64,000 nucleotides of DNA from a virus (IMGVR_UViG_3300035034_002090:109238-173237), one strand, 5' to 3'; numbered from the stretch's first letter, positions 15,357 through 62,763 are shown. Notes: generated by a model not told the origin, from the letters alone. Numbers and translations: made by a program.

Positions 15357-16085
15357 ATGCAAGATCTTCAAGAGCGTGTGGGTGAATTCGGGGAGGACGT
15401 CGGCGAGGTTCTAGACGAGGGCGTTATCAGGTGGCTTAAGGGCGCGGCGATTGCTGCCGTTGTCTATTCTGTGGTGAAGGCCATTATCTGGCCCATCGTC
15501 AGCTTCGCCATGAGTAGAGGTGAGGCCAAGGTGTTCGTCAGGGAGGCCGGAGACCACATCAGGGCTCAGGTCGACAAGGCCATCAGCAAGAGGCCCAAGG
15601 GCGAGCACTATCCAGACGCAGAGAAGGTCTGGGTTGAGTACAGCTTTCCTCTCGATTGGGGGGCTGCTGTCGACGGGGTTATCGAAGCGATGAGTGGATC
15701 TGAAGAGCGTAACATGCCAAGCAGGCCCGCCATCAACTGGAACAAACTCCAGAAGTCGATGCACAAAGCATTCAAGATGATGATCGGAAAGCGTCAGGCT
15801 GGCCCTGAAGTCATCGAGGCCATCGAGGCCGCCCATGGCGACATGATGCGTGCTGAGACCGGAAAGATTTTTGACGAACACGTCCAGCAAAGCATCGCAC
15901 ATGATGTCCAGCAGTCCGATCTCGAACCAGAGGCTGTCGAAGGCGTCCTCTACAGGGACTTCGATGAGGAATGGGAGTCCAGTGAGCCGTGGTTGAGCGT
16001 GAAGCAAATCGATCGCACCAAGTGGGTGATGGTCTATAATGTCTCGCTGAGTGTATTTACTCTCGACGCGGGAATGAGAGGGTGA
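15357..16085 (+). CDS. hypothetical protein (N-terminal hydrophobic helix)
   Basis: 242-aa ORF; AAIAAVVYSVVKAIIWPIVSFAM transmembrane-like segment. Confidence 0.45.
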   Translation: MQDLQERVGEFGEDVGEVLDEGVIRWLKGAAIAAVVYSVVKAIIWPIVSFAMSRGEAKVFVREAGDHIRAQVDKAISKRPKGEHYPDAEKVWVEYSFPLDWGAAVDGVIEAMSGSEERNMPSRPAINWNKLQKSMHKAFKMMIGKRQAGPEVIEAIEAAHGDMMRAETGKIFDEHVQQSIAHDVQQSDLEPEAVEGVLYRDFDEEWESSEPWLSVKQIDRTKWVMVYNVSLSVFTLDAGMRG

Positions 16086-16501
16086 AGTCGATATTAGAGA
16101 ACATTGATTTAGCTTTAGCCGAGTCAGACTTCGAGTCCGAATACGGCGTTCCTGAGAGCGTGGTAGAGCGGTACTCTTGCGGAGAATGCATGTGGCTAGC
16201 TCTAGCTCTCAACAGGCGGTTTGGGTGGAAGATCCGTGCCCAGATGCAGCGTGATAAAAAGCACGGCGATTACGTCGCCCACGCCTATGTGGTTCACCCA
16301 TCTGGACAGGAGATCGACATCCTAGGCCCGCAAGATCATGTCGATGTCTTCGCGTCAGACACGCAGGACTGGCGTGCCCAAGATTTGATTGACTTTTTGG
16401 ATGTAGAGCCCTCAAAAGTAAGACGGCAGATACGTGATGCTGAAAAGACGATGAATCGTTACGTGATTCCCAAGCTTCGTAGTAAGGGCTTGATAGAGTA
16501 G
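16082..16501 (+). CDS. leader-motif family protein (N-terminal SILENIDLALAES)
   Basis: 139 aa; shares the conserved N-terminal leader with 7 other ORFs in the window. Confidence 0.5.
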   Translation: MKSILENIDLALAESDFESEYGVPESVVERYSCGECMWLALALNRRFGWKIRAQMQRDKKHGDYVAHAYVVHPSGQEIDILGPQDHVDVFASDTQDWRAQDLIDFLDVEPSKVRRQIRDAEKTMNRYVIPKLRSKGLIE

Positions 16502-16741
16502 GGATGAGGCGATCGACGAAATCCTAAAAAGTCCTTGACTTGGAATTTCGGTGCCCTTATAGTCCTTAACTTTGACGAGTACGAGGCGCTGCTGCCTCAC
16601 TTAAAAATCAAAAGTGGCACAGGCCACACGAGAAAGAGAAGACAATGCTTCGTTATCAATGGAAATCCAATAATTCGTTTGCGCCCCCGGTTCGGGAGGT
16701 TGCGTCGATGTAATATGGGTTTCCATAGTACGCGAGCAATC

Positions 16742-16771: not shown

Positions 16772-16845
16772 TTGTGCCCGTAGCTCAATGGTAGAGCGCG
16801 ATACTGTTAATATCGTGTGTGGAGGTTCAAGTCCTCCCGGGTACG
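16772..16845 (+). tRNA. tRNA-Asn(GTT) (manual fold)
   Basis: cloverleaf: acceptor GTGCCCG/CGGGTAC, anticodon arm CGATA-CTGTTAA-TATCG, T-arm GGAGGTTCAAGTCCTCC. Confidence 0.6.
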
Positions 16846-16848
16846 CTT

Positions 16849-16920
16849 GGACTCATAGCTCAATTGGAAGAGCGCTGGTTTGAAGAGCCAGACGTCCCCG
16901 TTCGATTCGGGGTGAGTCCA
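16849..16920 (+). tRNA. tRNA-Phe(GAA)
   Basis: acceptor GGACTCA/TGAGTCC, anticodon arm CTGGT-TTGAAGA-GCCAG, T-loop GTTCGATTC. Confidence 0.65.
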
Positions 16921-16926
16921 CTTCAT

Positions 16927-16996
16927 AGGGTGCGCGCTGGGTACGCGGTTGAGGCTCCAAACTTCGACGACAGCCGGGTTCGATTCCCGGGCTCCC
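16927..16996 (+). tRNA. tRNA-like gene, anticodon not resolved
   Basis: clear T-arm CCGGGTTCGATTCCCGG plus 3' acceptor; anticodon arm could not be folded confidently. Confidence 0.35.
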
Positions 16997-17045
16997 TGCT
17001 GAGGCATTAATTGCCTCTTCTTTGACAAGTGAATAGGAACTTTCT

Positions 17046-17127
17046 GCGTCGTACGAGACTTGGTGTCCATGGTGGCTGTAAACCACTTGCTCTATGAGCA
17101 TGGCAGGTTCGATCCCTGCACGGCGCA
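17046..17127 (+). tRNA. tRNA-Tyr(GTA), type II with long variable arm
   Basis: acceptor GCGTCGT/ACGGCGC, anticodon arm GGTGG-CTGTAAA-CCACT, variable hairpin TGCTCTATGAGCA, T-arm GGCAGGTTCGATCCCTGC. Confidence 0.6.
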
Positions 17128-17133
17128 CTTATC

Positions 17134-17206
17134 TTGCCCGTAGCTCAGCTGGTCAGAGCGTGTGCCTGTTAAGCACAATGTCGCCGGTTCGAATCCGGTC
17201 GGGTAA
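17134..17206 (+). tRNA. tRNA with GTT anticodon (Asn-like) by manual fold
   Basis: anticodon arm TGTGC-CTGTTAA-GCACA; T-arm GCCGGTTCGAATCCGGT. Confidence 0.5.
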
Positions 17207-17211
17207 GCTTT

Positions 17212-17284
17212 ACACCCATAGCACAATTGGCAGTGCGACGTGTTTTGAGCGCGTTGGTTCTAGGTTCGAATCCTAGTGGGTGTA
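17212..17284 (+). tRNA. tRNA-Gln(TTG)
   Basis: acceptor ACACCCA/TGGGTGT, anticodon arm ACGTG-TTTTGAG-CGCGT, T-arm CTAGGTTCGAATCCTAG. Confidence 0.6.
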
Positions 17285-17289
17285 CTTGT

Positions 17290-17361
17290 TCCGGGGTAGC
17301 TTAATGGTATAGCGGCGCGCTGTTACCGCGTTGATTGCAGGTTCGAGTCCTGCCCCCGGAG
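17290..17361 (+). tRNA. tRNA with GTT anticodon (third GTT in this array)
   Basis: acceptor TCCGGGG/CCCCGGA, anticodon arm GCGCG-CTGTTAC-CGCGT, T-arm GCAGGTTCGAGTCCTGC. Confidence 0.45.
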
Positions 17362-17366
17362 CTTGC

Positions 17367-17397
17367 CTCGCCCGTAGCTACAATGGCAGGGGTTTGA
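17367..17397 (+). other. tRNA 5'-half remnant (acceptor plus D-arm only)
   Basis: CGCCCGTAGCTACAATGGCAG resembles the 5' halves of the tRNAs at 16772 and 17134 but no 3' half follows. Confidence 0.4.
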
Positions 17398-17471
17398 GGG
17401 CGGGTCGCCAAGTCAGGTCAGGCCCCGGACTTTTTAATCCGGTATACGAGGGTTCGAATCCCTCCCCGCTC
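17398..17471 (+). tRNA. tRNA-Lys(TTT)-like with apparent 8-nt anticodon loop
   Basis: acceptor GGGCGGG/CCCGCTC, long D-loop, anticodon stem CCGGA/TCCGG enclosing CTTTTTAA (8 nt), T-arm GAGGGTTCGAATCCCTC. Confidence 0.5.
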
Positions 17472-17531
17472 ATTGATTGTTGAGTTGCCAGTTCGAGTCC
17501 GAATGGTCAATCTAACCACAAAGGAGCATCG

Positions 17532-18068
17532 ATGAGAGCCATGAGGCGCATGAAAGGTGAAGAGATGGGACTCGTTTTTAAGCGTGACAGAATCTCAGCA
17601 GGCCCGCCCCCCGGTTGGAGCTGGGAGAAGTGGGCTGAGCGTCTAGGTACGGACGTGGCCGGAGCTAGGATGGCTCATGAGGCTGCACGCCGAGAGGCCC
17701 TTGAGGAAACAGGGCTCGAAGTCTTCGACTTGAAAGCCATCTTCGAAATGGAGGATGACGGCCACGGCTACAGAACAGTCGCCTTCTCTTGCGAATATGA
17801 AGGTGAGATAGGATCCGACGAGGCTGGTGTCGTCGCATGGGTTGAGCCTGAGGTTTTGTTCGAAGGTTCCTTCGGAGAGTACAACAGGGCTCTCTATAAC
17901 CACTCGTTTCAGTGGAGTTGGGCGGCCAGTGATGAGGTCGTGACACGGTACTATCATCCCGCTGCGGGCAAGGATACTTGCGTGCTATGTAAGATGGAGG
18001 TATCGAAGAAAGGGATAAGCATGATCGGCGAGCCAAAAAAGGTGTCGTCGAACTATGAGCAAGAGTAG
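17532..18068 (+). CDS. hypothetical protein
   Basis: 178-aa ORF with AAGGAG RBS right after the tRNA array. Confidence 0.45.
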   Translation: MRAMRRMKGEEMGLVFKRDRISAGPPPGWSWEKWAERLGTDVAGARMAHEAARREALEETGLEVFDLKAIFEMEDDGHGYRTVAFSCEYEGEIGSDEAGVVAWVEPEVLFEGSFGEYNRALYNHSFQWSWAASDEVVTRYYHPAAGKDTCVLCKMEVSKKGISMIGEPKKVSSNYEQE

Positions 18069-18074
18069 TTTTCG

Positions 18075-18160
18075 GAGGGTTGGCAGAGTCTGGCTTATTG
18101 CACCGGTTTTGAAAACCGGAGGCGCGAAAGCGCCCGTGGGTTCGAATCCCTCACCCTCCT
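18075..18160 (+). tRNA. tRNA-Ser(TGA), type II
   Basis: acceptor GGAGGGT/ACCCTCC, anticodon arm CCGGT-TTTGAAA-ACCGG, long variable arm AGGCGCGAAAGCGCCCGT, T-loop GGTTCGAATCC. Confidence 0.65.
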
Positions 18161-18276
18161 TATAGCATCCCCCGGCGCAACCCGGCGCGCCCAAGGGGGT
18201 ATTTGACTGCCGGAGTCGATAGGTTATCGTCGAACTTTCAAGGAGGACGGCGCAACAAGGAGAGATGAGGTGAACC

Positions 18277-18822
18277 ATGTCGGATACACTTGTGCTGAAC
18301 GCTGACTATGCCCCGCACTCACTGGTTACTTGGCAAGAGGCCATTGGGCTTCTTGTAAACGGAAAGGCGCGGGTCGAGAGAGAGTATGAGGACTGGCAGG
18401 TATCCAGTCCGTCTATAACAATAAAGGTTCCCTCAGTTCTCGTGCTCATCAAGTACGTCGTCTTCAGGCAGCCGGTGAAGTTCAACAGGGTGAATATCTA
18501 CGCCCGAGATGATCGCCAGTGCCTGTATTGTGGCAAGAAGGCTGGCAAGGGGCAGAAGCTCCGTGTGACTGATCTCACATTCGATCACGTCATTCCTCGA
18601 AGCAGGGGTGGCAAGACGAACTGGATGAACATCGTCACGGCTTGCGGAACCTGTAACCTAAAAAAGGGTAACAGGATGCCCAGAGAGGCAAATATGCCCC
18701 TTCTTAGGAAGCCGTACAAGCCGAAGAAGTTGAATCATATCGAGTTCACGCTCTCCGGTAGATCAATCCCTGAAGCATGGAGGGATTACCTGTACTGGAC
18801 ACAGGAGCTAGAACAGGACTAA
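18277..18822 (+). CDS. HNH endonuclease
   Basis: CLYCGKK...LTFDHVIPRSRGGKTNWMNIVTACGTCNLKKG: HNH core with zinc-binding Cys pairs. Confidence 0.8.
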   Translation: MSDTLVLNADYAPHSLVTWQEAIGLLVNGKARVEREYEDWQVSSPSITIKVPSVLVLIKYVVFRQPVKFNRVNIYARDDRQCLYCGKKAGKGQKLRVTDLTFDHVIPRSRGGKTNWMNIVTACGTCNLKKGNRMPREANMPLLRKPYKPKKLNHIEFTLSGRSIPEAWRDYLYWTQELEQD

Positions 18823-18885
18823 GATGGGGCCGGTCGGCCTGTGCTGACCGGCTTTATCTATCCTTGTTAGAAGTAGAGGTATCCT

Positions 18886-19095
18886 GTGACGACCAGAGAA
18901 GAGCTTATTGAGAAGACAACAGGGTTGCGCGAGGCAATTCAAGAGGTCATGCTGGACCTCAAGAAGCTTGGCGAGTCCGGTGAGATGTCTGAGCAGATGA
19001 AAGACATTCTTCTTAAACAGGCTATGGAAGCGGGTCTCGGTATGCTTTGTGTCGAAGGTGTCCTAAAAGAGGTTGATAATGCGGACAAGGAGTGA
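18886..19095 (+). CDS. hypothetical small protein
   Basis: 69-aa ORF. Confidence 0.3.
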   Translation: MTTREELIEKTTGLREAIQEVMLDLKKLGESGEMSEQMKDILLKQAMEAGLGMLCVEGVLKEVDNADKE

Positions 19096-19321
19096 CAGGG
19101 ATTCGACATTTGAGCCAGTAGAGGCACCTGAAGGGTCTATCGTATGGAATGACACCTACGTCAACGAAAACGGCGTAGAGCTTAAGAAGGGTATCTTCCT
19201 TGGTAAGTATGTCATATACCAAGTGGCCCCGGGGCTCTTCGATAGCAGTGAGCATATAAAGGAACCGCTTGATACGGTGTCGGGTGCGGATTTCTATCGG
19301 GATATTGATTGGGAGTTTTAG
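19073..19321 (+). CDS. hypothetical small protein
   Basis: 82-aa ORF overlapping previous stop. Confidence 0.3.
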   Translation: MIMRTRSDRDSTFEPVEAPEGSIVWNDTYVNENGVELKKGIFLGKYVIYQVAPGLFDSSEHIKEPLDTVSGADFYRDIDWEF

Positions 19322-19328
19322 GTTCAAA

Positions 19329-19401
19329 GGGGACGTAGCTCAATTGGGAGAGCACTTCGCTGGCAGCGAAGAGGTTGAGGGTTCGAACCCCTCCGGCTCC
19401 A
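19329..19401 (+). tRNA. tRNA-Ala(GGC)
   Basis: G3:U70 Ala identity pair; anticodon arm CTTCG-CTGGCAG-CGAAG; T-arm GAGGGTTCGAACCCCTC. Confidence 0.65.
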
Positions 19402-19576
19402 TGTGACGAATTGGTGTGAAGAGAGGCCCCGGGAAGCGTCAAGCGTGGAGGGTCTTGTAGACGCGCACAAATGGTCGGGCCACTGACCTAAAAGGAAGGG
19501 CTGAGGTAAGGGCGATGTTGCTACCAGCAACCTGAACCAAGAAATGAGACAGGTAGCCGCTCCTTTGGGAGCGTAA

Positions 19577-19649
19577 GGGGCCGTAGCTCAATTGGGAGAG
19601 CGCCGTCTTTGCAAGGCGATGGTTGAGGGTTCGAGTCCCTCCGGCTCCA
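19577..19649 (+). tRNA. tRNA-Ala(TGC)
   Basis: G3:U70; anticodon loop TTTGCAA; 72/73 identical to the copy at 62987-63059. Confidence 0.65.
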
Positions 19650-19651
19650 CT

Positions 19652-19740
19652 GGAAGGGTGGCTGAGCGGTCTAAGGCACTCGCTTGGAAAGCGGGCGATC
19701 ATGAGACATGGGTCCGAGGGTTCGAATCCCTCCCCTTCCG
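19652..19740 (+). tRNA. tRNA-Ser(GGA), type II
   Basis: acceptor GGAAGGG/CCCTTCC, anticodon arm CTCGC-TTGGAAA-GCGGG, long variable arm, T-arm GAGGGTTCGAATCCCTC. Confidence 0.6.
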
Positions 19741-19861
19741 TTTTAGGTTCTTTCAATTGGCGTGTGACCTCTGCCTTGGGCTAAGTTGTTTTATCCAAGA
19801 CTGAGCAAGATACTGGCTTTGGCGAATATTAAATCGCGCCAGTCAAGACAGAGGCACACGC

Positions 19862-20656
19862 ATGGGTACTTTGATCGAACATATCGACACCCTTCTTGAA
19901 GCAGCTCCAATGCTCAAATTTAAGGGGCTTCCGAAGGTAACCACAAGGCCAGATCAGGAGGTTGTTTAGCCATCCACTGATCGGCAGATTGAAATTCAGA
20001 AAAAGAGAATTAAGAACCGTCTAAAGAGGCTGGGCTGGGGCTCGATGGAGATCGATGGCATCGTTGGTGCCGCAGATCAAGCCATGACTTCTTTTGATAA
20101 GATGTCCGGCCTAACTGTTGGCGGAGGAAATCAGGGGCCTGTCTCTATAATAGGGCTTCGGTCGAACAGCATCGGCGTTAAGAACCACGAGGCCATACAC
20201 GTTCTCTTCAAGCAGATCAGTCAAAAGTATGGGGCTCACGCAGAAAGTTCGGTTGTAAGTGAGCTGGTCAAGGAAGTCAGTTCCGAGGTGAAAGACAAGC
20301 TCAAAGCCATATTTATTAAGTATGGATCCGGCGTATATAACTCGTCTGATGAGGATGAGATTCTAGCTTGGATGTACACCTTCATGACGTCTCGTCACGC
20401 AAGAGAGAAGGTAGGCATGAGTCGGGAGATGATGAGTGCCATCAAGCGTGATTGGAAGAGAGTTGTTCGGCGGGCCGCAAAGTTCACACCCGAGAAGCTA
20501 CAGGGAGACTCTCTCAGTAGGACCAAGCGCGTATTTATGAAGTACGACTCCGATCATCTCAAGATGATTCTGGACGAAGATCTGTTCCCCGAGGATCTAT
20601 TCCCGAGACGCAACGATATTCTAAGGGACATCCTGAGGGAGAGGGGCGACCTTTGA
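19862..20656 (+). pseudogene. leader-motif family member interrupted by in-frame TAG at 19967-19969 (264 codons total)
   Basis: MGTLIEHIDTLLEA leader at the N-terminus; 35 codons, TAG, then the 20045-20656 ORF continues in the same frame. Confidence 0.45.
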
Positions 20657-20774
20657 GGGCGCTCTAAAATACCGGCATTGACGTTTTTGTTTTTGCTTGA
20701 CGTCGAAGATAGTAGGTCTCTAAGGTTCGCTGCTCAGTTAGCAGCACCGTAACGCAACCTTAGCGAGAACGTTT

Positions 20775-21836
20775 ATGACTGCTACCGATGTTGAAGTTGA
20801 AGTGCATGATCGATACCGGGTATTTGACGAGTTCTTCTCCGGCCGTAACGAAGATCAAAAGGTTTGCATCGTTCTGCAACACACCCCCGATCCAGATGCC
20901 ATTGGCAGCGCGCTTGCGCTCGAATGGCTCCTTGAGGTCAGGCACGGCCTTCAGTCGGACATCTGCTATTCCGGGCAGGTAAGCCATCCTCAAAACCAGA
21001 CTGAGATCAATGTGCTGGACATTCGTCTAAAGCATATCGATGATTTCAAGACTGAGTTTGATGAAGGTGGTTATTCGACGTTTGTTACAGTAGACAGCGT
21101 CCCTCAAAACACGGGATTCGACTGTATCGATGAGTGGCACGCTGTGTTCGATCATCACCAGTTCGAGATGGATCTACCCGTGACGGACATCAGGGCCACA
21201 GGCTCGTGCTCGTCTATCCTCTGGGACTACCTCAATCACTTCGAGATGGACTTCACGACGGAACGCGGGTCTATGGTCGCCACAGCTCTGTTGTTTGGCG
21301 TGGTCAATGACACGCATAACCTGCTGACTGAAAATGTTTGCGTGCTGGACCTCGAAGCCCACTCGCATCTGATTCAGTACATCGATCGGAAGAAGTTCCA
21401 CAACATCATCAATCACCCCCTGCCGCCGTATCTGTTTGATCTAAGGGCGTTGGCGGCGGCGAATATGGTGTGCGAGGCTTCGATCCTGATCTCGTATCTG
21501 GGCATTCTTCCTAGTAAGCGTAGAGACGCGCTTCCGATCATCGCAGATGAGTTCTTGCGCATGGAAGGTGTCGAGACAGTCGTGGTCTTCTGCATGATCG
21601 AGGGAGCTATCGAGGCTTCGGTGAGAAGCCGGAACTCATCGGTTAATGTGCACCAGTTTTGCCAAAAGGTTTTCGGCCCTAAGAAGGCTGGAGGCAAGCA
21701 AGGTGCTGGCGGAGCTAAGGTTCCGGTCGGGTTTCTCTATGCGTCTGACGATGACGTAGCCGACCAAGAAAAGCTCAGTGAGTTCATCAAGGGTACGGTG
21801 ACGAAGCGGATTATCCGTCATCTGTCCGGAGCTTGA
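20775..21836 (+). CDS. DHH-family phosphoesterase (NrnA/RecJ-like, DHH-DHHA1)
   Basis: motifs LQHTPDPDAIGSALAL (DxD), VFDHHQ (DHH), C-terminal GPKKAGGKQGAGGA (GGGH-like DHHA1). Confidence 0.65.
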   Translation: MTATDVEVEVHDRYRVFDEFFSGRNEDQKVCIVLQHTPDPDAIGSALALEWLLEVRHGLQSDICYSGQVSHPQNQTEINVLDIRLKHIDDFKTEFDEGGYSTFVTVDSVPQNTGFDCIDEWHAVFDHHQFEMDLPVTDIRATGSCSSILWDYLNHFEMDFTTERGSMVATALLFGVVNDTHNLLTENVCVLDLEAHSHLIQYIDRKKFHNIINHPLPPYLFDLRALAAANMVCEASILISYLGILPSKRRDALPIIADEFLRMEGVETVVVFCMIEGAIEASVRSRNSSVNVHQFCQKVFGPKKAGGKQGAGGAKVPVGFLYASDDDVADQEKLSEFIKGTVTKRIIRHLSGA

Positions 21837-21951
21837 TGTGGAGTTACTTATTTACAGTCTGGCGGCCCTGAGTATAATGAGCATCATACTTGAGGGCCGC
21901 CACTGTTATCACTCTCTGGGACTGAGAGAGTAATCTGTTGTACAAAAGGAA

Positions 21952-22137
21952 GTGAGGACTATGACGAACAAAGGTGATGAAATTATCGACCTCATCGACG
22001 GTCTAGATAATGTCGAGCCAGAAGATCTCGAAGATGTTGAGGATCTCAGAGAGGCTCTACAGGAAAGGATTGATGTCTTGTCGGAGATCTTTGAGATCGC
22101 CGAGGACATCTCGATGGCGGTAGACGACTTAACTTAG
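21952..22137 (+). CDS. small highly acidic protein
   Basis: 61 aa, D/E-rich. Confidence 0.3.
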   Translation: MRTMTNKGDEIIDLIDGLDNVEPEDLEDVEDLREALQERIDVLSEIFEIAEDISMAVDDLT

Positions 22138-22267
22138 CAGGATAGGGAGCCGATATTTCCGAGTACAGGAAAATAGGAAAGCATCACGGGTATGTGATGG
22201 TAGAGCCCCCGAAGGATTACCGGGGGCTCGATGGTCTGGTGGAAGATACTGCTACGAACATCAAGCA

Positions 22268-22591
22268 GTGTGGTGGATTAATACTGGCGAGATACCCGGC
22301 AGCGGGCAGATAGTGCATCACATTAATGAGGATAAGACTGATAATCGATTTGAGAACTTAGAGGTTTTAGACAGATCAGAGCACGCCAAACACCATGGTG
22401 ATCAGAAAAAGAAAATGATGGTCATTCTTAGGTGTCCAGCATGTAGTGAGATCTTTGAAAGGGCCAGAAACAAAACGCATTTGGTAAAAGGCGGTATGGC
22501 TAGCTATTGCTCAAGATCATGTGCAGCATCTGGCGGAAAGAAGGGGCGTGTGGTCTATGAGGATAATGTGGTAGAGGTTTACCTTAAGTAG
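22268..22591 (+). CDS. HNH endonuclease (GTG start; paralog of 30841-31302)
   Basis: HHINEDKTDNRFENLEVLDRSEHAKHH plus C-terminal zinc ribbon CPACSE...CSRSC; upstream in-frame homology without a start codon suggests N-terminal truncation. Confidence 0.65.
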   Translation: MWWINTGEIPGSGQIVHHINEDKTDNRFENLEVLDRSEHAKHHGDQKKKMMVILRCPACSEIFERARNKTHLVKGGMASYCSRSCAASGGKKGRVVYEDNVVEVYLK

Positions 22592-22670
22592 GTTTAGGGC
22601 GGTGGTGTTAATTGGATTAACATCAGAGATTCCAAATCTCTGGCTGAGGGTTCGAGTCCCTCCCGCCTTG
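22586..22670 (+). tRNA. tRNA-Trp(CCA)
   Basis: anticodon arm AGAGA-TTCCAAA-TCTCT; T-arm GAGGGTTCGAGTCCCTC. Confidence 0.55.
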
Positions 22671-22673
22671 CTT

Positions 22674-22761
22674 GGAAGGGCAGACATGGCTGGCGTGTCA
22701 GCCTGTTTCGAAAACAGGTAGCCGTTTATTCGGTCTGAGGGTTCGATCCCCTCTCCTTCCG
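22674..22761 (+). tRNA. tRNA-Ser(CGA), type II
   Basis: acceptor GGAAGGG/TCCTTCC, anticodon arm CCTGT-TTCGAAA-ACAGG, long variable arm. Confidence 0.6.
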
Positions 22762-22763
22762 TT

Positions 22764-23372
22764 TTGAACACAATGATAACTGGAACATACGCCACCGACC
22801 ACCATAGGAAGGCTTTAATGGACGATAGAACCGTGAAAGAATCGCCGGAAGACCTTATGAGAGCCCGTGAGGCGCTTATGTCTCTGGATGACATGGAGGG
22901 ACAGATCATTAAGAATGCTCGTGACTTCGTGACAAGCAACGGTGAGCTTAACTACAGTTCCGGCGTCCTATCAGCTCTTTATGACAGGGGCATGTACGAG
23001 TCAGGAATTGCTGAATTCGTCGCAGATACGGCCGTCAATATTTTTAGGGGTCTTCGCGAGCACATCAATATCCCCGGTGTCCTGAAAGGTCCAGTGGGCA
23101 TGGCAACAGATGGCGCTGCTATTAGAGCTATGACGAGGCGAACAGCCGTCGTTCTAGATCATGACGACAGCTTGGACGAGATCGTTACTACGGGTTCTTG
23201 TGAGGGCCTCGTAGAGGCGGTTTGTGAGGATTTGCGTGAACGGATCGGTGCTTACGGTGCCGTTTACCCGTATCAGCTTTTTATGCCCATGGGACCCTTC
23301 AAGGATCCGAGTATCGAAGGTGACCGACCAAAGTTCGGCTTGGCAATCAGGTATGGAGCCTATACGGTATGA
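22764..23372 (+). CDS. hypothetical protein
   Basis: 202-aa ORF directly after tRNA-Ser. Confidence 0.4.
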   Translation: MNTMITGTYATDHHRKALMDDRTVKESPEDLMRAREALMSLDDMEGQIIKNARDFVTSNGELNYSSGVLSALYDRGMYESGIAEFVADTAVNIFRGLREHINIPGVLKGPVGMATDGAAIRAMTRRTAVVLDHDDSLDEIVTTGSCEGLVEAVCEDLRERIGAYGAVYPYQLFMPMGPFKDPSIEGDRPKFGLAIRYGAYTV

Positions 23373-23396
23373 GAAGCCTGCTTCAATGAGAGCACT

Positions 23397-23732
23397 ATGG
23401 ATAGCCTGACCAAAAGGAATTCAATCGGGATTACCGGAAGCATTGTCATTTTGCTTCTGTTCACTATGCTCACAAGCGGGTGTAAGAAACCTTCGGGACC
23501 GAGCGGGGTTCACGAGGAAGGTGATCTGGAAGCCTTTTGCTCGACGACTTTAGAGCGAAAGAGGCTGGAGAGATTCATCCTCGATTGCACAAAAAATGCC
23601 GGACAGAGCACTACTGAGGATGGCGATGACCTCGTCGCGCAGTGTGAGGAAACCGGTATCAGGGTGGTATGTCCTGTTGTATGCACTCTAGGCACCGAGT
23701 ACTTGAACAATAAAAGGGCTTGCCCTCCTTGA
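23397..23732 (+). CDS. putative lipoprotein, Cys-rich
   Basis: signal peptide with lipobox LTSGC; six further Cys in the mature part. Confidence 0.4.
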   Translation: MDSLTKRNSIGITGSIVILLLFTMLTSGCKKPSGPSGVHEEGDLEAFCSTTLERKRLERFILDCTKNAGQSTTEDGDDLVAQCEETGIRVVCPVVCTLGTEYLNNKRACPP

Positions 23733-23806
23733 GTAGCTAGTCTACCTTACATCCGTTCACAAAGATCCCATCGCCCGGGTAAGATGGGTAAGGCGCTAGC
23801 GCGCCG

Positions 23807-23883
23807 TCGTCGCGTCAGCAGGTAGCCCCTGTGTGGTCGGCTGAGGGAGAATATCTCTCATAGGGTTCGAGTCCCTAGCGAGG
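23807..23883 (+). other. tRNA-like element (degenerate tRNA?)
   Basis: canonical T-arm TAGGGTTCGAGTCCCTA and a near-complementary acceptor TCGTCGC/GCGAGGA, but no clean D or anticodon arm. Confidence 0.25.
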
Positions 23884-23929
23884 ATTAGTTGTATTAGTCA
23901 CTAGGTTGGTTATAGTGAAGGATGATAGT

Positions 23930-24001
23930 GCGACCATAGTTCAACTGGTAGAACGTTTCGTTGCCAACGAGAAGGTTGCGGGTTCGAGTCCCGCTGGTCG
24001 C
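23930..24001 (+). tRNA. tRNA-Gly(GCC)
   Basis: acceptor GCGACCA/TGGTCGC, anticodon arm TTTCG-TTGCCAA-CGAGA, T-arm GCGGGTTCGAGTCCCGC. Confidence 0.6.
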
Positions 24002-24002
24002 T

Positions 24003-24105
24003 TGTTCTGAGGAAGTGGTAGCCGCCCGCCCGCGCAGGTGGGCCTCGGGTTCGAATCCCAGAAATAACGGTATAAGGCACGGGGTTCAAGTCCCCGCCTC
24101 AGAAC
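24003..24105 (+). other. aberrant ~103-nt tRNA-like gene with two T-arm motifs closed by a 9-bp stem
   Basis: GTTCTGAGG ... CCTCAGAAC closing stem; internal CGGGTTCGAATCCCA and CGGGGTTCAAGTCCCCG. Confidence 0.4.
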
Positions 24106-24109
24106 TCTT

Positions 24110-24181
24110 GCGGTTATAGTTCAGTTGGTAGAACGACAGCCTTCCAAGCTGTATGTCGCCGTTTCGAATCCGGCTAGCCGC
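24110..24181 (+). tRNA. tRNA-Gly(TCC)
   Basis: acceptor GCGGTTA/TAGCCGC, anticodon arm ACAGC-CTTCCAA-GCTGT, T-loop GTTTCGAATCC. Confidence 0.6.
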
Positions 24182-24288
24182 TCTTGATAGATGTAGACGC
24201 AATGTTTGAGAAAACCAAATGGCCCCGAGTTGCCCTGCACAGCATCGATGATGCGCTCATATGTAGCTAATGAGTCATCAGGACGTGC

Positions 24289-24363
24289 GGGGTGTTAACT
24301 CATGGGTTAGAGTGCTTGCCTTATAAGCGAGTGAATCGGGTTCGAGTCCCGAACGCCCTACCA
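24289..24363 (+). tRNA. tRNA-Ile(TAT) with genomically encoded CCA
   Basis: acceptor GGGGTGT/ACGCCCT, anticodon arm CTTGC-CTTATAA-GCGAG, T-arm TCGGGTTCGAGTCCCGA, then ACCA. Confidence 0.5.
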
Positions 24364-24364
24364 A

Positions 24365-24437
24365 GGGAGGATAATTCAATTGGCAGAATCGTCGGTTCAT
24401 AACCGATCAGTTCCGGGTTCGAGTCCCGGTCCTCCCA
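24365..24437 (+). tRNA. tRNA-Met(CAT) (initiator, elongator or Ile2 not distinguishable)
   Basis: acceptor GGGAGGA/TCCTCCC, anticodon arm GTCGG-TTCATAA-CCGAT, T-arm CCGGGTTCGAGTCCCGG. Confidence 0.6.
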
Positions 24438-24447
24438 CTGGACATTT

Positions 24448-24729
24448 ATGGATGAAAAGCCTGAATATGTCACCTGCATAGGCAGCCCTTATGCTGATGA
24501 TTCCGAGACCTATAGAAACATCTACGAGGGAGAGACCCACCGTAGGTTTTTCAGGTCTATTTGCGGAAGAAGGCTGGGTGCGGGGTTTGTGTTTGAGAGT
24601 ATTGACCACGCATTTACCAACGCCGAGAATGACGGACGCCTTCTGATATGTCCGAGCTGCGTCAAGAGCGTTGTCGAGACAATGCAGAAAGGATCTTGGT
24701 CCTGTACTCAAAGGAACTCCGATGGATGA
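24448..24729 (+). CDS. small zinc-finger-like protein
   Basis: 93 aa with CxxC-type pairs (CIGS...CGRR...CPSC). Confidence 0.35.
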   Translation: MDEKPEYVTCIGSPYADDSETYRNIYEGETHRRFFRSICGRRLGAGFVFESIDHAFTNAENDGRLLICPSCVKSVVETMQKGSWSCTQRNSDG

Positions 24730-25133
24730 AAATAAAGTCAAAGCCAAGTACAAGAGGTACAGAAGCCTCGACGCTAAACTGAGTGATGTGCCGGACTCGG
24801 TTCTGCTCAAGATCTATCAGACGTGCCCTCCGATGATGTCTTACATCGCAGCATCCAAAGGTATGCTCGATGAGTTTTTCGAAGAACACGATCTTCGTCC
24901 GGGTGACGAGGATTCGCTTTAAGGGAGGCTGATGTGAAACCGTACGGGGGAGAAAGAAACGTGGCCTTCTGGCTTGATGAGCCGCAGCAGGACTACTACA
25001 AGCGAGCTTGGAGAGGCGCTGAGAGATCCCGGGTTAGAGATCGACTTGTCGAGCTTGAGAAGCTGGCGAATTCCGGGAAACCAGAGCACTTCGCAGAACG
25101 TAGCGCTCATAGACTCACTAACTAAGGAAGGCG

Positions 25134-25433: not shown

Positions 25434-25441
25434 GGTAACGC

Positions 25442-25795: not shown

Positions 25796-25832
25796 CCTCA
25801 GGCTGTAACTTGCTCTCAGACGGGATACCGGC

Positions 25833-53600: not shown

Positions 53601-54233
53601 ACAATTTCAGCCAGCGGAGGATCGAGCCTTCCGGCTGGATCTGCTGGCGATATTTTGACTCACGATGGCGCGAATTGGGTAACATTGGCCCCGGGTCTGT
53701 CTGGGCAGGTTCTCCATACCGATGGGAGTAGTTCAGTATACTGGTCTACTGATGACACGGGTTCCCCGGCTCACACCCATAACCACGACATCGGTCACTT
53801 CGAGGCTTATAATGACGCCCCGCAACAAATAACGGGCGGTCCCTATCTCCTAACAGATACTGTCAGGACAAGCACTGGTATATTTACGCTAAACGATGGG
53901 CTCTTCACATCTAATATAAGTGGTTTCGTAGCGATAGACATGCAGGCTAGTTTTGTGAACTTACAGGACCTGTCAAAGTTTCGGGCGTTTCTTATCCATA
54001 ACGACTCCTACATTGCAGGCACTTATATTTACGAAACCCTTGGAGATCCCGCTGGAGATTTGGCCGCCGACTCCTTCTGCTCCATTACATGGAAGCGAAC
54101 AGTCGTTAATGTGCAACCTGATGACGAGTTGGGGGCTGTAGTCGAGATACTCGACTATGATGGCGTAGAGACTGTAGCGCAAAGCGTATCCGTCTGCATC
54201 ACCCCGCTCTACACAGACACCGTTACTCCTTGA
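50601..54233 (+). CDS. large tail fiber protein (1210 aa) with internal sequence repeats
   Basis: at least 5 copies of (I/L)NTSELNNDAGFISGI; repeated (S)HTHxTGDI(T/S)xF motifs. Confidence 0.6.
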   Translation: MMSRTKFTEGQIRDEDLITNDEIGAGHKTTEVGPSGTWPVSTTGADTGNNIINVSNTDLTQAGIEPGDTVSLVGGPNAGEYTVAGVVDATSLQVSENVSSTSGGDSLTVYHAVGSTRVGVDNSVFSNITGANLQDVLESVDVSFSLAGHTHVTGDITDFTESTQDVVGGMLNDTTYISLGYLDSNGTIAATLNTGSVPVSALNDNIGIATETYVQSRGLNLITNGTGLMGDNTNFSEFVYDPSEAYSAPASFRVESTENLYLSTDEVIAVDASKHYRLSAYVKGGSSPSTFYIGVSLQDADGRGIQAYNWTRHPGTDTRLAQPLTPGDTVVYLDDASNWRDSNGDADHSHTITIWEYENSFGYKYPEYTYSKLQNRKAWNNGAVDTNNNTITLIDPWPSSLANPDDPNGTWPTGTAVSNANSGGLQYIAASNETTTEDWVQYQGTIGGINYTGENTPAYYDMFPPGTAYVYPLIFANWNATGSRTTWFSNIEFGLDNPTRDDFENTSTLEWDYDATIESAIRGNVIPGALNTSELNNDAGFISGITAEQSGAFKGEVDTLNFINGTHLAPAISLVGDEIRVRHNVDPSGIGTSELNNDAGFVDINHTHSTGDITAFPDAAKDAAGDALSDTSTIDFSYDNVNKVITADVIPGALNTSELNNDEGFITGIGAYENGVTVGGGSIFNFIGGNNTTVNVTDQGVIVDIEISSTDTTLSGSAAGGDLGGTYPNPTVTGLTITGETNGDFLWFDGSSWTRFPEGSASQYIGVGAIGGEPQWMQINANEINNNVGWISGISNENISDLGDVTISSVADNEVLAYNSGTGDWINQTAAEAGLAAASHTHGTGDISGFDEAVRDTAGAAFNNSNSSTVNFAQNDTANTMWFTVNQSGIKTSLINNDANFISGVTVQNNSISQTVAGTLNFQDGTHTSSSVTAGSGVANVSFDVDPSTINTSTLNNDAGWLSGINVGASNTLTDYDSIRFLEGSNVSLSLAGISGEAQLTISASGGSSLPAGSAGDILTHDGANWVTLAPGLSGQVLHTDGSSSVYWSTDDTGSPAHTHNHDIGHFEAYNDAPQQITGGPYLLTDTVRTSTGIFTLNDGLFTSNISGFVAIDMQASFVNLQDLSKFRAFLIHNDSYIAGTYIYETLGDPAGDLAADSFCSITWKRTVVNVQPDDELGAVVEILDYDGVETVAQSVSVCITPLYTDTVTP

Positions 54234-54309: not shown

Positions 54310-54969
54310 ATGGGCAGCAAAATGAACCTTCTTGAAGAAATCGATTTAGCGCTCAAAGAGTCAACTGAGTTCAACCTCAGGCTCGGCGGTCGAGTGGTCC
54401 CAGATGCCTTCCTAGACCGGGGCCTTATCGAGCCCACTAAGAAGGCTCACAAGTCGACGCCATCCAGAGGTAAGAGCTGGGCTTGGCGCGTGGTGGCAGA
54501 CTTCGAGAAAGCCATCCAGCGTCAGTTCTACCGGGCTATTGACTCGATGCAGTCGTCAGAGCCAAGCATTGACGATGCGAACAAATCATTGGTAGCAAAA
54601 GTCGTCTTGAGGGCGGATTGGGATAGTGTTGCCAAGGGTGTGTTCACACAGCTAAGAGGTAGCAAGAAGGTCCGAATCAAAAAGGACCCGTTCACAAGCG
54701 CAATGAGCAATCATCAGCTTCAGACAGCCGTAGCTAATGAAGTAGACCAGCGGGTTAACCCCACTAAGCTGATCAACTCCAAGGGCGGTTTCAAGGCGAT
54801 CTTGGAGGGCTTGGAAGAAAAGGATAGAAGCAGGCTTGCCAGCTATCTTCTTACCGAAGGCTTCGAAGTAGGCGTTCTGACCACTCACGTGTACAGCGAT
54901 GGCAAGAATCTCGTACTGGACATGGAGCTTACCTTCAAGCAGGCTGGAGGCGTGCAATCGAATGCATAG
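54310..54969 (+). CDS. leader-motif family protein
   Basis: N-terminal MNLLEEIDLALKEST; otherwise no recognised domain. Confidence 0.45.
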   Translation: MGSKMNLLEEIDLALKESTEFNLRLGGRVVPDAFLDRGLIEPTKKAHKSTPSRGKSWAWRVVADFEKAIQRQFYRAIDSMQSSEPSIDDANKSLVAKVVLRADWDSVAKGVFTQLRGSKKVRIKKDPFTSAMSNHQLQTAVANEVDQRVNPTKLINSKGGFKAILEGLEEKDRSRLASYLLTEGFEVGVLTTHVYSDGKNLVLDMELTFKQAGGVQSNA

Positions 54970-57610: not shown

Positions 57611-57796
57611 ATGTTGACTTTGACGAGAAAAGTAGGCGAGAAAATTCGAATCGGCGACGACATTACCATTGTTGTCAAAGAGATCCGTCGCAATCAGATC
57701 CGTATCGGGATCGACGCCCCTCGCGAGGTCCCCATCTACCGCGAGGAACTGTACATCGAGATGCATGATCTGGATGACGAGGACACGAACAGCTAG
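57611..57796 (+). CDS. csrA: carbon storage regulator CsrA/RsmA homolog
   Basis: [47 protein letters not shown]: near-canonical CsrA sequence including GxxxRIGI.AP.E..IxR.E. Confidence 0.9.
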
Positions 57797-59340: not shown

Positions 59341-60303
59341 ATGAAGAAGCTCCTAGAAAATATAGATGTTCTCCTTGAGGACTCCTTCGATGCCTCCGAT
59401 GTGCCGAGTGATTTCTACATGGTGTTCTACCTCGATCCCGGGAGGAAGAGCGATAGGCTTGAGCAGCTCGCCAAGGGTAAGCTAGAAGGGGTCAAGGGCA
59501 TCAGCGGCAGCAGCATGATCGTGATCGACTTCCTACCCAACGGCAGGAACGCTATTTTGAAAATGGATGGCGACACCGTGGTTAAGAGGAACCCGATCTC
59601 CCGGGTGATGTACAGCAACCATCACTACCTGATGAGCAATGACATGTTCGCCATCAGGCGTCTTTTCAACGTCTCGGCCACTGACCCAAGTTCGGCGAGA
59701 GCCTCGGCTATCATCACCATTCTTCACGACTTCACGCGTGAATATAAAAACGACTACCACTCCCGAGAGGGAAAGGTTGCGTTTTATGTCAAGACCGAGA
59801 TGTGGAGGATCAAGAAAGAGCTGAAAAAAGAGTCCGAGCCAGTCAACTCAGTTCGTGAGATGGCCAAGCTGATACACCGAGTCACCGAGTATCTATCGGC
59901 CAGCAAAGGTGGTCTTGATTTTGACGTCAGGGATTGGGAAAAGCACCTTCACAAGGCGATTAAGGATATAGGCAGGGACTACGCCAAAGAGGCCGAGTGG
60001 ATCCTCAAAGACGAGACTCTCATCGTACCCAAAGGCTCCACGCTCATGATCGGGCTATCTAACTACACTGATAAGGTCGAGGCGCTTTATCAGGAGTGGA
60101 AGGAACTCAAGGGCTCATCGAAAGGCCCAGAGGACATCGACTCCGACCGGATGCTTCAGCTCGCCAGCCATAAGTATTGGTTTGAGAAGCGAGAAGCAAT
60201 GGATGCCGCCATCGATGATTACGGACTGGACAGGCGATACCGTATCAGGTTTGTCGACATCGAATCGATTAAGCGAGCACAAGAAAAGGTCAGGGGTTGG
60301 TGA
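59341..60303 (+). CDS. leader-motif family protein (paralog of 26707-27642)
   Basis: N-terminal MKKLLENIDVLLEDS; shared GKLEGVKGISGS block. Confidence 0.5.
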   Translation: MKKLLENIDVLLEDSFDASDVPSDFYMVFYLDPGRKSDRLEQLAKGKLEGVKGISGSSMIVIDFLPNGRNAILKMDGDTVVKRNPISRVMYSNHHYLMSNDMFAIRRLFNVSATDPSSARASAIITILHDFTREYKNDYHSREGKVAFYVKTEMWRIKKELKKESEPVNSVREMAKLIHRVTEYLSASKGGLDFDVRDWEKHLHKAIKDIGRDYAKEAEWILKDETLIVPKGSTLMIGLSNYTDKVEALYQEWKELKGSSKGPEDIDSDRMLQLASHKYWFEKREAMDAAIDDYGLDRRYRIRFVDIESIKRAQEKVRGW

Positions 60304-61393
60304 TATGCAGAGACTAGAGGAAGCCACATCGAGGCTGATGTATCATGGGACGAGCACTAGGTTCCTGCGATCAATCCTGAAGAAGGGCCTTGTTCCGAAC
60401 CCTAAGAAGCAACGTTGGGGCAAGGATATGGATAGCACCAGACAGAACGTCCAGCCGGTCGCCACGCTGGACGGATACGTGTATCTGGCTAAGAGCGGTT
60501 ACTTGGCAAGAGATATTGCCATAGACGCAGCTAAGAAGTTCGGTGGCCAACCTCTTGTTGCGGTTGCTCAGGTATCGCTGAACTCGCTAGCGGTTGATCA
60601 CGACGATCTCACCGGTCCCGTTAACGATGCCATCTGGTCTATCGCCAAAAAGCGTGCGCCCGGAGACGAAAAGAGCCGAAAGAGCTGGCTTCTTGGTTGG
60701 CTTCTCGGCGTAGAGACCGGCCGTAAGATCGCCGTTGGAGATGAGTTCGGCAAGATACTCAAGGACTACATCGGAGATGATGGGAAGAATCCACTGAAGT
60801 TCAAGAAGGGTCGCGGAGAAGGCGTCAAGCCTTATCTTCCAGCCAAGATTCTCATGATGTATCTGGTGCTAGCGCACCGCAGGCAGGGTAATGAGACCTC
60901 TTTGGTGAAGGGCTATCTCGATGCCCAGCAGGTGTATTGGCCTGATAATGGGTACGACATGGGCTTCCCGGCCAAGGATGAAGAGTGGACGTCAGAGGAC
61001 CGTGAGAATCTCAAGTACGCGATTGAAAAGACCAAGAGGCAATGGCCCAGAAACCTCAGCAAAAGCGATCTCGAAGATGAGTGGAGGGAGACAATTGCTC
61101 ATGTATCAGATCGCCTCAGTGGGGCCTTGGATAGCGAGAGAGGCCGAACTAAAGGGGCGATGATTGATGACCCCCTTAACTACAGGGGCTCGAATCGTAT
61201 CGTTGCTCTAGTCGAGATAAATGGTGAGCCCGGTGAGCAGGTAGCTGTTGTGCATTACAGCTCCCTTGGGCGATCCTCGCTTGAGTCTGCCATTGATAAT
61301 CTAGGCGTATTCTCATCTGTAGAGATGGCCCGCGAGCGTGTGACAGAAAGCCACACGCTCGTCGAACGAATCGAGAGATTCGTATCTAGCTAG
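60304..61393 (+). CDS. ADP-ribosyltransferase-fold (PARP/Tpt1-like) protein
   Basis: LMYHGTSTRFLRSILKKGL (cf. PARP LWHGSRTTNFAGILSQGL) and GYVYLAKSGYLA (cf. GIYFADMVSKSANY); ATG 60304 placed directly after the upstream stop, ORF track starts at 60182. Confidence 0.45.
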
Positions 61394-62763
61394 CCTGTCA
61401 CCTTGATCCGCTCGCCATCGATGATGAGTGTGGCGTCGAGGTTGACGATGTACTTATCTATGCCGATCTGGAGCGCATTCAGCACAGACTTGGGGTCTTT
61501 GGCAGCCATCTCCATGGCTTGCTCTGGGGTGTAGCTCCCGCGCCAGTCGGAGAGTCCATAGGCAACAGCATCTGATGTGGTTCGGATCGTGGAGTTGGTC
61601 AGGGACAAGGTGCCAGACAGTCTAAGTGACGAAGGCATCTTACCGAGTTGGAACTCACAGTTATCAAACCATGATGCCTTGGCGTTTAGCTGGGTATCAT
61701 TGGTGAAGGTCATGCCCTCGAATTCACCGCTCTGAAGCGCAAGTGTCGTCATGCCTTCGATCTTCATCCAGCTAACTTCGTCTGGATCTTGAGAAAGGGC
61801 CAACCTCCTGAACTCATCGTCCTGTAAAGCGCGTTTGATCTGCTCAATATCCTTCTCGGGGGGTCGATAAGCTCGATCCCTTCTGGATCCCATCAGCTTT
61901 TCAATAACGCCCACCTTAGAGGTGTCTCCGAGGTATTCGGCGGCGATCTTATAGGCGACGCTCCGCTCGCCTCTTTTCACCGCCTTGACCTTGTGCTTGA
62001 CCGGGTTCTCTACCACGTCAAGGATCTCTATCTTGTTGCTGGATAGAATGACGCCCTGAGTAGGTTCATTGGGGTGGATAAGGCCCGAGCCCGCATCGAT
62101 TACGCCGTCGATGCCAAGACCCCTAAGAATCTTCGACCACGTCACTGTGGCTTTGCCTGACGTTGCCTCTTCGGCGATGATGCGCGTGATGTTCCATAGC
62201 TTACCAAAGGCTGTCTTGGTTTTTGTGGTATCCATCGCCCATTCGACCTCGAAATCGAAATCATCGAAGTCGTATTTGTGAGCCTTGCGAAGCTTTTCAA
62301 TGTCTCTTTCGAGGTCTGAGTCGGAGTAGTTCTTGGCATCTCCACGGTAGCCTACTTGGATGATCTTGCCCTTGCCCTTGAAGATGTAGCACCACTTGCG
62401 CTCGCCAGCGAACGGCACGTTTCTGGTAGACTCCAGAGAGGCTACGATTTGACGTGTGAGCGGGTATCCGTAGACCCCAGCAGGTGTATTGAAGTCAGTA
62501 CCCGGGTTGATGCCGAGCTTAAATCCTCTCGACCCGCCATTATCGCCACCAATGTTTGAGAAGTGAATCAACACATTCTCATTATTTTGGTGCTGCTTAA
62601 TGGCAGCGATCGGGTCTTTGCCTTCGGCTAAAAATAGATCGATTTCTTCCAGTAGACGCTTTATTTCAATCCTACATACGGGTCGATTGTGTTCTGAGAC
62701 GAGTGTATCTGTGTAGGGGCGGCATTCAAGTTGAATAAAAGGATCCTTGTGTTGACAAGACAT
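61390..62763 (-). CDS. leader-motif family protein (large, minus strand; start uncertain)
   Basis: IKRLLEEIDLFLAEG leader lies ~33 codons downstream of the first ATG; 457-aa ORF. Confidence 0.45.
   Translation of the reverse strand: MSCQHKDPFIQLECRPYTDTLVSEHNRPVCRIEIKRLLEEIDLFLAEGKDPIAAIKQHQNNENVLIHFSNIGGDNGGSRGFKLGINPGTDFNTPAGVYGYPLTRQIVASLESTRNVPFAGERKWCYIFKGKGKIIQVGYRGDAKNYSDSDLERDIEKLRKAHKYDFDDFDFEVEWAMDTTKTKTAFGKLWNITRIIAEEATSGKATVTWSKILRGLGIDGVIDAGSGLIHPNEPTQGVILSSNKIEILDVVENPVKHKVKAVKRGERSVAYKIAAEYLGDTSKVGVIEKLMGSRRDRAYRPPEKDIEQIKRALQDDEFRRLALSQDPDEVSWMKIEGMTTLALQSGEFEGMTFTNDTQLNAKASWFDNCEFQLGKMPSSLRLSGTLSLTNSTIRTTSDAVAYGLSDWRGSYTPEQAMEMAAKDPKSVLNALQIGIDKYIVNLDATLIIDGERIKVTG

Follow-up and report, generated by a model that had tools for sequence, protein, structure and literature searches.

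A short N-terminal leader on diverse proteins of an uncultivated large phage is a candidate capsid-targeting propeptide

The capsid-targeting sequence (CTS) of IPI, IPII and IPIII, which are internal proteins of phage T4, together with the N-terminal propeptide of Alt, was reportedly the subject of work by Mullaney and Black in 1996. The T4 CTS consists of the first 10 residues; targeting depends on residues 4 and 7, and processing by the protease gp21, which cuts behind a Glu in a short motif, depends on residues 8 and 10. The CTS suffices to package foreign proteins (PMC9026906). The T4 Ip proteins have only this leader in common, and ip genes have been found by means of it (PMC12373910, PMC3012670), while Alt is a packaged ADP-ribosyltransferase (ART) that is likewise processed by gp21 (PMC9026906). 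In phiKZ-like giant phages such as SPN3US, phiKZ and 201phi2-1, proteins inside the head (ejection and inner-body proteins) are directed there by N-terminal propeptides, which a protease related to gp21 cuts off behind a Glu, and the SPN3US paralogs gp53 and gp54 have an identical 15-residue N-terminus (PMC5694885). Here we analyze a 64,000-nucleotide stretch of viral DNA (IMGVR_UViG_3300035034_002090:109238-173237; the whole stretch is called the window below), in which eight open reading frames (ORFs) carry a common leader of 13-15 residues. Our preferred reading, which we hold with somewhat better than even confidence, is that this leader would act as a propeptide of the T4 CTS type for targeting to the prohead core, would be removed by the prohead protease after Glu, and would mark packaged, co-injected accessory proteins. 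Because the architecture of the T4 CTS and internal proteins has been known since the 1990s, the arrangement is not categorically new; the differences are the sequence and length of the leader, the number of tagged genes, and their occurrence in a lineage of huge uncultivated phages with no cultured relative.

All eight N-termini singled out by a sequence-only reading of the window are present in the sequence where that reading placed them. The genes, with the ORF that follows the second of them, are:

16082-16501, + strand: gene 1, 139 aa, with a GTG start overlapping the stop of the upstream gene; leader MKSILENIDLALAE at 16082-16123, then S
19862-19969, + strand: gene 2, a 35-aa ORF that ends at an in-frame TAG; leader MGTLIEHIDTLLE at 19862-19900, then AA
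20045-20656, + strand: ORF of 203 aa in the same frame as the 19862 ORF, 75 nt downstream of it
25833-26516, + strand: gene 3, 227 aa; leader MNLINRIDSLLSE at 25833-25871, then G
26710-27642, + strand: gene 4, 310 aa, paralog of the gene at 59341; leader MKAILEQIDRVILE at 26710-26751, then S
27644-28255, + strand: gene 5, 203 aa, with a predicted ART-fold cargo at residues ~23-188; leader MTVQLLENIDKILSE at 27644-27688, then G
54322-54969, + strand: gene 6, 215 aa from the ATG at 54322; leader MNLLEEIDLALKE at 54322-54360, then S
59341-60303, + strand: gene 7, 320 aa, with a stop three codons upstream of the ATG; leader MKKLLENIDVLLE at 59341-59379, then DS
61390-62763, - strand: gene 8, 457 aa from the ATG at 62763; leader IKRLLEEIDLFLAE at residues 34-47 (62623-62664), then G

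The leader stands directly at the start codon in seven of the eight genes and 33 residues past the first ATG in the remaining one, gene 8. Three assemblies agree on the prediction of gene 1 as 139 aa and of gene 8 as 457 aa. For gene 6 the gene callers start at an ATG at 54310, which adds MGSK, and for gene 4 they begin at the ATG at 26710; the sequence-only reading had placed the latter start at 26707, where an in-frame GTG does occur. The copies follow the pattern x-x-[IL]-[LI]-[EN]-x-I-D-x-h-[LI]-x-E-[SGAD]. The full consensus can be written M-x(1-3)-[IL]-[LI]-[EN]-x-I-D-x-h-[LI]-x-E, then S, G, A or D. To call the leaders near-identical was an overstatement, as only I and D are invariant and the mean column identity is 54%. 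All eight copies end in [LI]-x-E, and the residue after the terminal Glu is S, G or A in seven of them and D in one.

Several searches show that this leader is a distinct feature of these genes. A regular expression for it matched seven times, every time in the coding frame and at the start of an ORF. A profile hidden Markov model (HMM) built from the eight leaders scores its members at 15.9-20.0 bits, with the next best six-frame match at 4.0 bits, the best match in 30 codon-block shuffles at 8.6 bits and the best in the reversed sequence at 3.8 bits. When each leader is left out of the model in turn the scores range from 7.7 to 20.0 bits, with five leaders at 16.8 bits or above and three weaker ones, namely those at 19862 (10.2 bits), 25833 (10.3 bits) and 26707 (7.7 bits).

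Codons vary synonymously between the copies, with Leu encoded by TTA, TTG and CTN (all six codons), Glu by GAA and GAG, Ile by ATH and Asp by GAY, and this free variation means that the leader is conserved as a protein sequence and not as a DNA element. The same variation contradicts the overlapping DNA element that the sequence-only reading had named as the outcome that would overturn it. A nucleic-acid element lying over the 5' ends of genes, such as a translation-initiation region, a recombination cassette or a regulatory RNA site, would explain why every copy is found at a gene start, but we regard it as scarcely conceivable: most synonymous positions differ and all six Leu codons are used while the peptide is kept, and intergenic k-mer counts upstream of the leader genes revealed nothing convincing and no common motif.

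Plotted on a helical wheel, the leader has its hydrophobic residues on one face, opposite E, D and E, and carries a net charge of -1 to -3; in charge and amphipathicity it is comparable to T4 MKTYQEFIAE and to the gp24 N-terminus MAKINELLRE. A short, amphipathic N-terminal peptide could in principle also serve as an export or membrane-targeting signal, acting in non-classical secretion or as a membrane-binding helix. We consider this very improbable, as no Sec or Tat signal features were found in the leader: besides its negative charge, it has a mean hydrophobicity of ~0.0-0.3, lacks a hydrophobic stretch or core, a twin-arginine motif and a signal-peptidase site, and its acidic helix is unsuited to binding the anionic membranes of bacteria.

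Downstream of the leader the proteins, which span 139-457 aa, have little in common. The earlier proposal that the cargos are unrelated except for two paralog pairs was borne out for their unrelatedness and for one pair, 26707 (26710) and 59341, which share 27% identity by BLASTP (E 1.6e-21), but not for a second; a pairing of 27644 with 62763 has no BLASTP support beyond the leader. A word-indexed search with the 26710/59341 family returned only these two proteins and no members outside this phage, and an AlphaFold2 (AF2) model of the 59341 protein, made from a two-sequence alignment, has a predicted local distance difference test score (pLDDT) of 33. For most of the cargos no match was obtained in Pfam, PHROG or PDB sequences; the cargo of gene 1 has no family match in Pfam or PHROG, PDB sequence searches with the 27644, 25833 and 62763 proteins gave nothing significant, and searches of GenBank phages with the cargo proteins gave no match. 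The cargo at 25833 contains a ParB/Srx-like motif, ...GEGNHRLATA..., for which Pfam gives no significant match, and it yields a single weak local alignment over ...EG.HR... (pairwise E 0.007) to a protein of contig L135 that is itself a weak ParB_N match. The label of ParB-like nuclease, which this protein had been given, has this one weak motif alignment as its basis and is tentative.

The cargo of gene 5, at 27644, is the most informative of the set, and the suggestion that it is a PARP-like ART is supported at the level of the fold. Its AF2 model has a pLDDT of 78.5, and a Foldseek search with this model matched MbcT, ParT, a RES toxin and tankyrase with probabilities of 0.97-1.0. Among PDB entries the closest structure is 9k3a_B, a virion-internal ejection protein from the pre-ejectosome of cyanophage A4. 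Pfam PARP falls below threshold (E 0.084), and H28, Y57 and E172 are invariant or near-invariant among the homologs. The model supports assignment of this cargo to a predicted ADP-ribosyltransferase fold of the H-Y-E type. In the same model the leader forms a separate, low-confidence helix at residues 3-19, and the core begins at residue 23.

A word-indexed search with the 27644 protein retrieved only itself, and an exhaustive HMMER search retrieved 213 homologs. Their alignments mostly begin at query residue ~18-26, after the leader, and the ART-like domain is also found within proteins of 2000-7000 aa. The N-terminal extensions of the homologs fall into recurring classes, and most lack the window leader; the leader has therefore been joined to a pre-existing domain. 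Leaders of the window class do occur on homologs P0005 (MRQILEDIDDLLLEG), P0079 (MNLIENIDQLLTEA) and P0074 (MLVEFIDHLLES), as well as on P0036 and P0154.

When the neighbors of these homologs are considered, the modular nature of the leader becomes clear. In contig L133, an unrelated sequence of 3.2 kb with a GC content of 58%, four consecutive genes, including an ART-like gene and a gene for a J-domain protein, have leaders of the window type (LVEFIDHLLES, MNLIESIDVLLEA, MIVEYVDSLLEK and TIVEGIQLLLER). In L135 five or more genes, among them a ParB_N-like one, have a MNFKEWL leader, which resembles MKTFKEF of T4 ipI; L140 has five genes with an LLE[SN]W-type leader (M[KR]xLxE[SN]W..F[LV].E) and three with the leader MKITKTQLKQIIxEE (MKITKTQLKQII). 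In L150 and L146 the ART-like gene and its neighbors likewise have a leader in common, which brings to five the other contigs where this is so. At least four other leader classes occur on the ART cargo family, and each of them is common to neighboring genes. Leaders are thus shared within contigs and differ between them, so that a single tag is found on many cargos of a genome, and a single cargo family bears many tags across genomes.

These observations bear on the idea that the leader is the last remnant of a common ancestry, a structurally constrained helix with no targeting role in paralogs that have otherwise evolved quickly. There is one true paralog pair in the window (26710 and 59341), accessory genes of large phages do diverge quickly, and most of the cargos are without detectable homologs, all of which this idea accommodates. 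Against it, the 213 homologs of the 27644 cargo mostly have unrelated leaders in place of that of the window, the cargos differ in size and include an ART fold, a ParB-like motif and, in L133, a J domain, and AF2 places the leader outside the 27644 fold. We judge such a remnant to be quite improbable.

A link to the phage head comes from a different leader class. An IMG/VR scan for M-K-x-L-L-E-N-W gave at least 164 matches in at least 120 loci, and at least 32 loci have two to five copies. Among the matches listed, R9, [YF]11, [LI]12 and E14 are conserved in addition to the residues searched for, and the sequences diverge fully after E14. The resulting consensus, MKLLLENWRK[YF][LI]xE, has the same register as MKSILENIDLALAE of the window. 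The loci belong to T4-like phages: again among the matches listed, they contain homologs of T4 proteins (gp17 in 15, gp20 in nine, gp21 in five and gp23 in seven). MKELLENW...ALLEG is the N-terminus of the gp23-like major capsid protein itself in three loci (compare ...AELLNKWKPLLEG of T4 gp23). In three head modules the interval from the portal gene to the prohead-protease gene, which in T4 holds core genes 67 and 68, contains small ORFs with an LLENW or MKITKSQLKQII leader. In these T4-like environmental contigs, the leader of the accessory genes and the N-terminus of the capsid protein are one motif.

A second common leader class, MK[IL][TS]K[ST]QLKQIIKEE[LI]E, was observed on adjacent small ORFs, partly within T4-like head modules beside LLENW, at the following loci:

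L140, 4156-5045 and 8757-9227
L166, 6764-7728
L252, 1721-3629

The head modules also bear on a further explanation, in which the leader is a docking helix for a hub other than the capsid in the infected cell, for example a chaperone, a protease adaptor, a polymerase or a compartment receptor. Docking peptides typically take the form of a short amphipathic helix set apart from the cargo domain, as this acidic leader does; genes for Cpn10, Band_7 and CsrA are present in the phage, and no head genes in the region examined tie the leader to the head directly. This explanation does not sit easily with the look-alike leaders on the capsid protein and on head-module ORFs beside the prohead protease in T4-like contigs, nor with the [LI]-x-E that ends every leader class; furthermore, the leader classes change between lineages while the cargo is homologous, which fits co-evolution with a phage-specific assembly partner. 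On this evidence we consider a docking role away from the capsid unlikely.

Compared with T4, the similarity of the window is one of arrangement. In both phages unrelated, non-essential proteins resemble one another only in a short peptide at the extreme N-terminus, and in both this peptide is amphipathic with key hydrophobic positions and an [LI]-x-E end followed by a small residue; as T4 has Alt, so the window set includes one cargo with a predicted ADP-ribosyltransferase fold (27644). The gene neighborhoods are also similar: the T4 ip genes flank a tRNA cluster beside genes 53 and 5, and the scattered leader genes of the window sit around a tRNA cluster near baseplate genes, with the T4-like baseplate proteins gp53, gp5/base_V and gp25 encoded in the 10 kb upstream of the window. 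The leader moreover resembles the N-termini of T4 head proteins, namely gp67 (MEGLIEAIKS), gp24 (MAKINELLRE|S), gp22 (MLKEQLIAE|A) and gp23 (...AELLNKWKPLLEG, to be compared with MGTLIEHIDTLLE|A of the window); other related T4 N-termini are those of IPII and IPIII (MKTYQEFIAE|A), ipI (MKTFKEF) and Alt (MELITELFD).

There are also clear differences from the known systems. The window leader is 13-15 residues long rather than 10, and more genes are tagged than in T4, eight in 64 kb. In T4 the propeptides cleaved by gp21 are found on gp23, gp24, gp22, gp67 and gp21, whereas the leaders of the window are on accessory proteins and not on recognizable head proteins; the phage of the window is uncultivated and ~176 kb or more in size, and packaging and cleavage are proposed for it. 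The propeptides of phiKZ-like phages are mostly longer than 100 residues and have the motif [S/A/G]-x-E, with no single short tag on many unrelated proteins (PMC5694885). The cyanophage A4 pre-ejectosome protein (PDB ID: 9k3a, PMC12002296), the best structural match of 27644, is an example of the polymorphic or polyvalent phage proteins by which enzymatic domains are delivered with the DNA. There the domain is a module of a giant structural protein, while in 27644 it is stand-alone, 203 aa long and has a short tag.

Reading the leader as a capsid-targeting propeptide, we infer the following mechanism. The 13-15 residues would form an acidic amphipathic helix at the extreme N-terminus, with L4, L5, I8 and L11/L12 on its hydrophobic face, and this face would dock the nascent accessory protein on the scaffolding core while the prohead is being built. 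The prohead protease would then cut after the terminal [LI]-x-E, with Glu at P1 and Leu or Ile at P3, and before the small residue (S, G or A), and the freed cargo would stay in the head to be ejected with the DNA, after which it may act in host takeover or against host defenses.

A number of results weigh against this reading. The leader and the T4 CTS (LLENIDxLLxE and MKTYQEFIAE) have no significant similarity to each other; the resemblance to MKT[YF][QK]EF... is one of register only (M-K-x-h-h-E-x-h...h-x-E), and the leader is for this reason not assigned to the T4 CTS family by homology. The [LI]-x-E end belongs to the conserved leader and hence adds no independent evidence, and although the N-terminal extensions of 59 stand-alone homologs of 27644 show a 4-fold enrichment of [LI]-x-E (Fisher 1.5e-14), this test ignores relatedness. 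An HMM of 135 LLENW leaders finds only the leader at 59341 in the window (5.6 bits) and none of the other copies, so that the two classes are linked by their architecture and common cargo family and not by sequence statistics; the proposed core-targeting function of the LLENW leaders would itself rest on gene position and on analogy with T4. The earlier expectation of a modular capsid-targeting tag on diverse, probably injected accessory proteins is supported in part, and the comparisons with other phages strengthen it. No prohead protease, scaffold/core or major capsid gene was detected within the window and the 10 kb upstream of it, and the contig ends within 10 kb downstream. In Salmonella phage Munch, a cultured jumbo phage (L137, 294619-295308), a distant ART-like homolog, which starts MNLKELQESISSIMEG, lies in a tRNA cluster, and its gene neighbors have no common leader. 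Two of the eight copies are also irregular: the leader at 19862 sits on an ORF of only 35 aa, and that of gene 8 is internal to the longest ORF with no ATG, GTG or TTG closer to it.

If the capsid-targeting reading is true, the leader labels at least eight proteins that are injected with the DNA, including an ART, and these would be first-strike effectors of host takeover or anti-defense; nearly all of the proteins so labeled are without known homologs. More tentatively, and with slightly less than even confidence, we suggest that lineage-specific N-terminal 'zip codes' may be general in T4-like and huge phages, copying the core-binding and cleavage motif of the head proteins and marking other proteins for loading and injection. 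Candidates for such zip codes include LLENIDxLLxE in the window and MKLLLENWRxYLxE, MNFKEWL and MKITKSQLKQIIKEE elsewhere. Were this so, the genome sequence of an uncultivated phage could be enough to list the effectors that it packages and injects. The tags proper to each lineage, the re-tagged ART-like cargo and the identity of tag and capsid N-terminus in T4-like contigs suggest a sequence rule by which injected proteins might be predicted in metagenomic phages, and this broader pattern may be a more useful result than the single leader. The leader classes also suggest natural tags with which foreign proteins could be loaded into the heads of non-model phages, as has been done with the T4 CTS.

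Two of the leader genes deserve further comment. The in-frame TAG at 19967-19969 divides the 35-aa ORF at 19862 from the 203-aa ORF, and both are predicted separately in the contigs from ENA and JGI. Recoding of this TAG was considered and rejected, as TAG ends 16 of 55 ordinary genes; since it is an ordinary stop elsewhere, 19862-20656 is a pseudogene or split gene. The 19862 ORF probably represents the 5' end, decayed or split off, of a gene that continues at 20045-20656, and the latter, for which no Pfam or PHROG match was found, is possibly the former cargo of this leader. T4 alt.-1/alt.-2, a stop-interrupted duplicate of the 5' end of alt, is comparable. In gene 8, the sequence AGGA-N5-ATA directly precedes the leader, and translation from that point would yield MKRLLEEID, in keeping with the other copies; a perfect hairpin (CCGGGGA-N8-TCCCCGG) abuts the ATG at 62763, where there is no Shine-Dalgarno motif. 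A non-canonical start of gene 8 is possible from these sequence features.

An IMG/VR scan with a degenerate leader pattern gave mainly chance matches, one per locus, some of them within gp25-like genes. The pattern K-x-h-L-E-x-I-D-x-x-h-x-E also matches L022, L023, L031, L035, L054, L058, L063, L097 and L111, which are contigs with gp25-like genes; these matches are probably false positives, and that in L063 lies within the gp25-like region. In L135, a 78-aa ORF at 10527-10763 (- strand) corresponds to residues 245-284 of T4 gp23 (pairwise E 1e-7), an isolated capsid fragment beside the ART-like gene. Distant ART-like homologs are also found in the Munch relatives 7t3, SE_PL and PHA46 and in Klebsiella phage fENko-Kae01.

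The window is part of an uncultivated large myovirus-like phage of roughly 176 kb or larger. Close copies (99.9% identical) exist in metagenome assemblies, the longest of which is k141_11637 in ENA ERZ27315599 (175,870 bp); a GenBank search with the window found no similar phage, no close relatives of the phage were found in GenBank or IMG/VR, and the phage itself is absent from IMG/VR. The window has ~52% G+C and is transcribed almost entirely from the + strand. It contains 29 tRNA genes (16774-31959 and 62987-63059), interspersed with small ORFs and homing-endonuclease genes. A segment of 1.3 kb in this region (22661-23973), which spans a tRNA-Ser, two ORFs and the first part of a tRNA-Gly, is missing from the otherwise 99.9% identical ENA contig and present in the JGI contig, and therefore represents a strain-level indel. 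Gene 6 lies directly downstream of a 1210-aa ORF with no assigned function (50601-54233), which itself follows a 512-aa fiber/decoration-like ORF. The window also encodes ribonucleotide reductase, a helicase, PhoH, and NUDIX and HNH genes, together with:

35236-36231: Band_7/SPFH protein
41674-41976: Cpn10/GroES
46105-46845: ChaB-domain protein
57611-57796: CsrA homolog

An ORF at ~13277-14284 on the - strand, opposite to its neighbors, has a precomputed Pfam match to TrfA, a plasmid replication initiator. One predicted tRNA (17398-17472) has a four-base anticodon (tttt), and a transfer-messenger RNA (tmRNA) at 37316-37715 encodes the tag peptide DNDNVINLNDFRREAPQTMERAAA.

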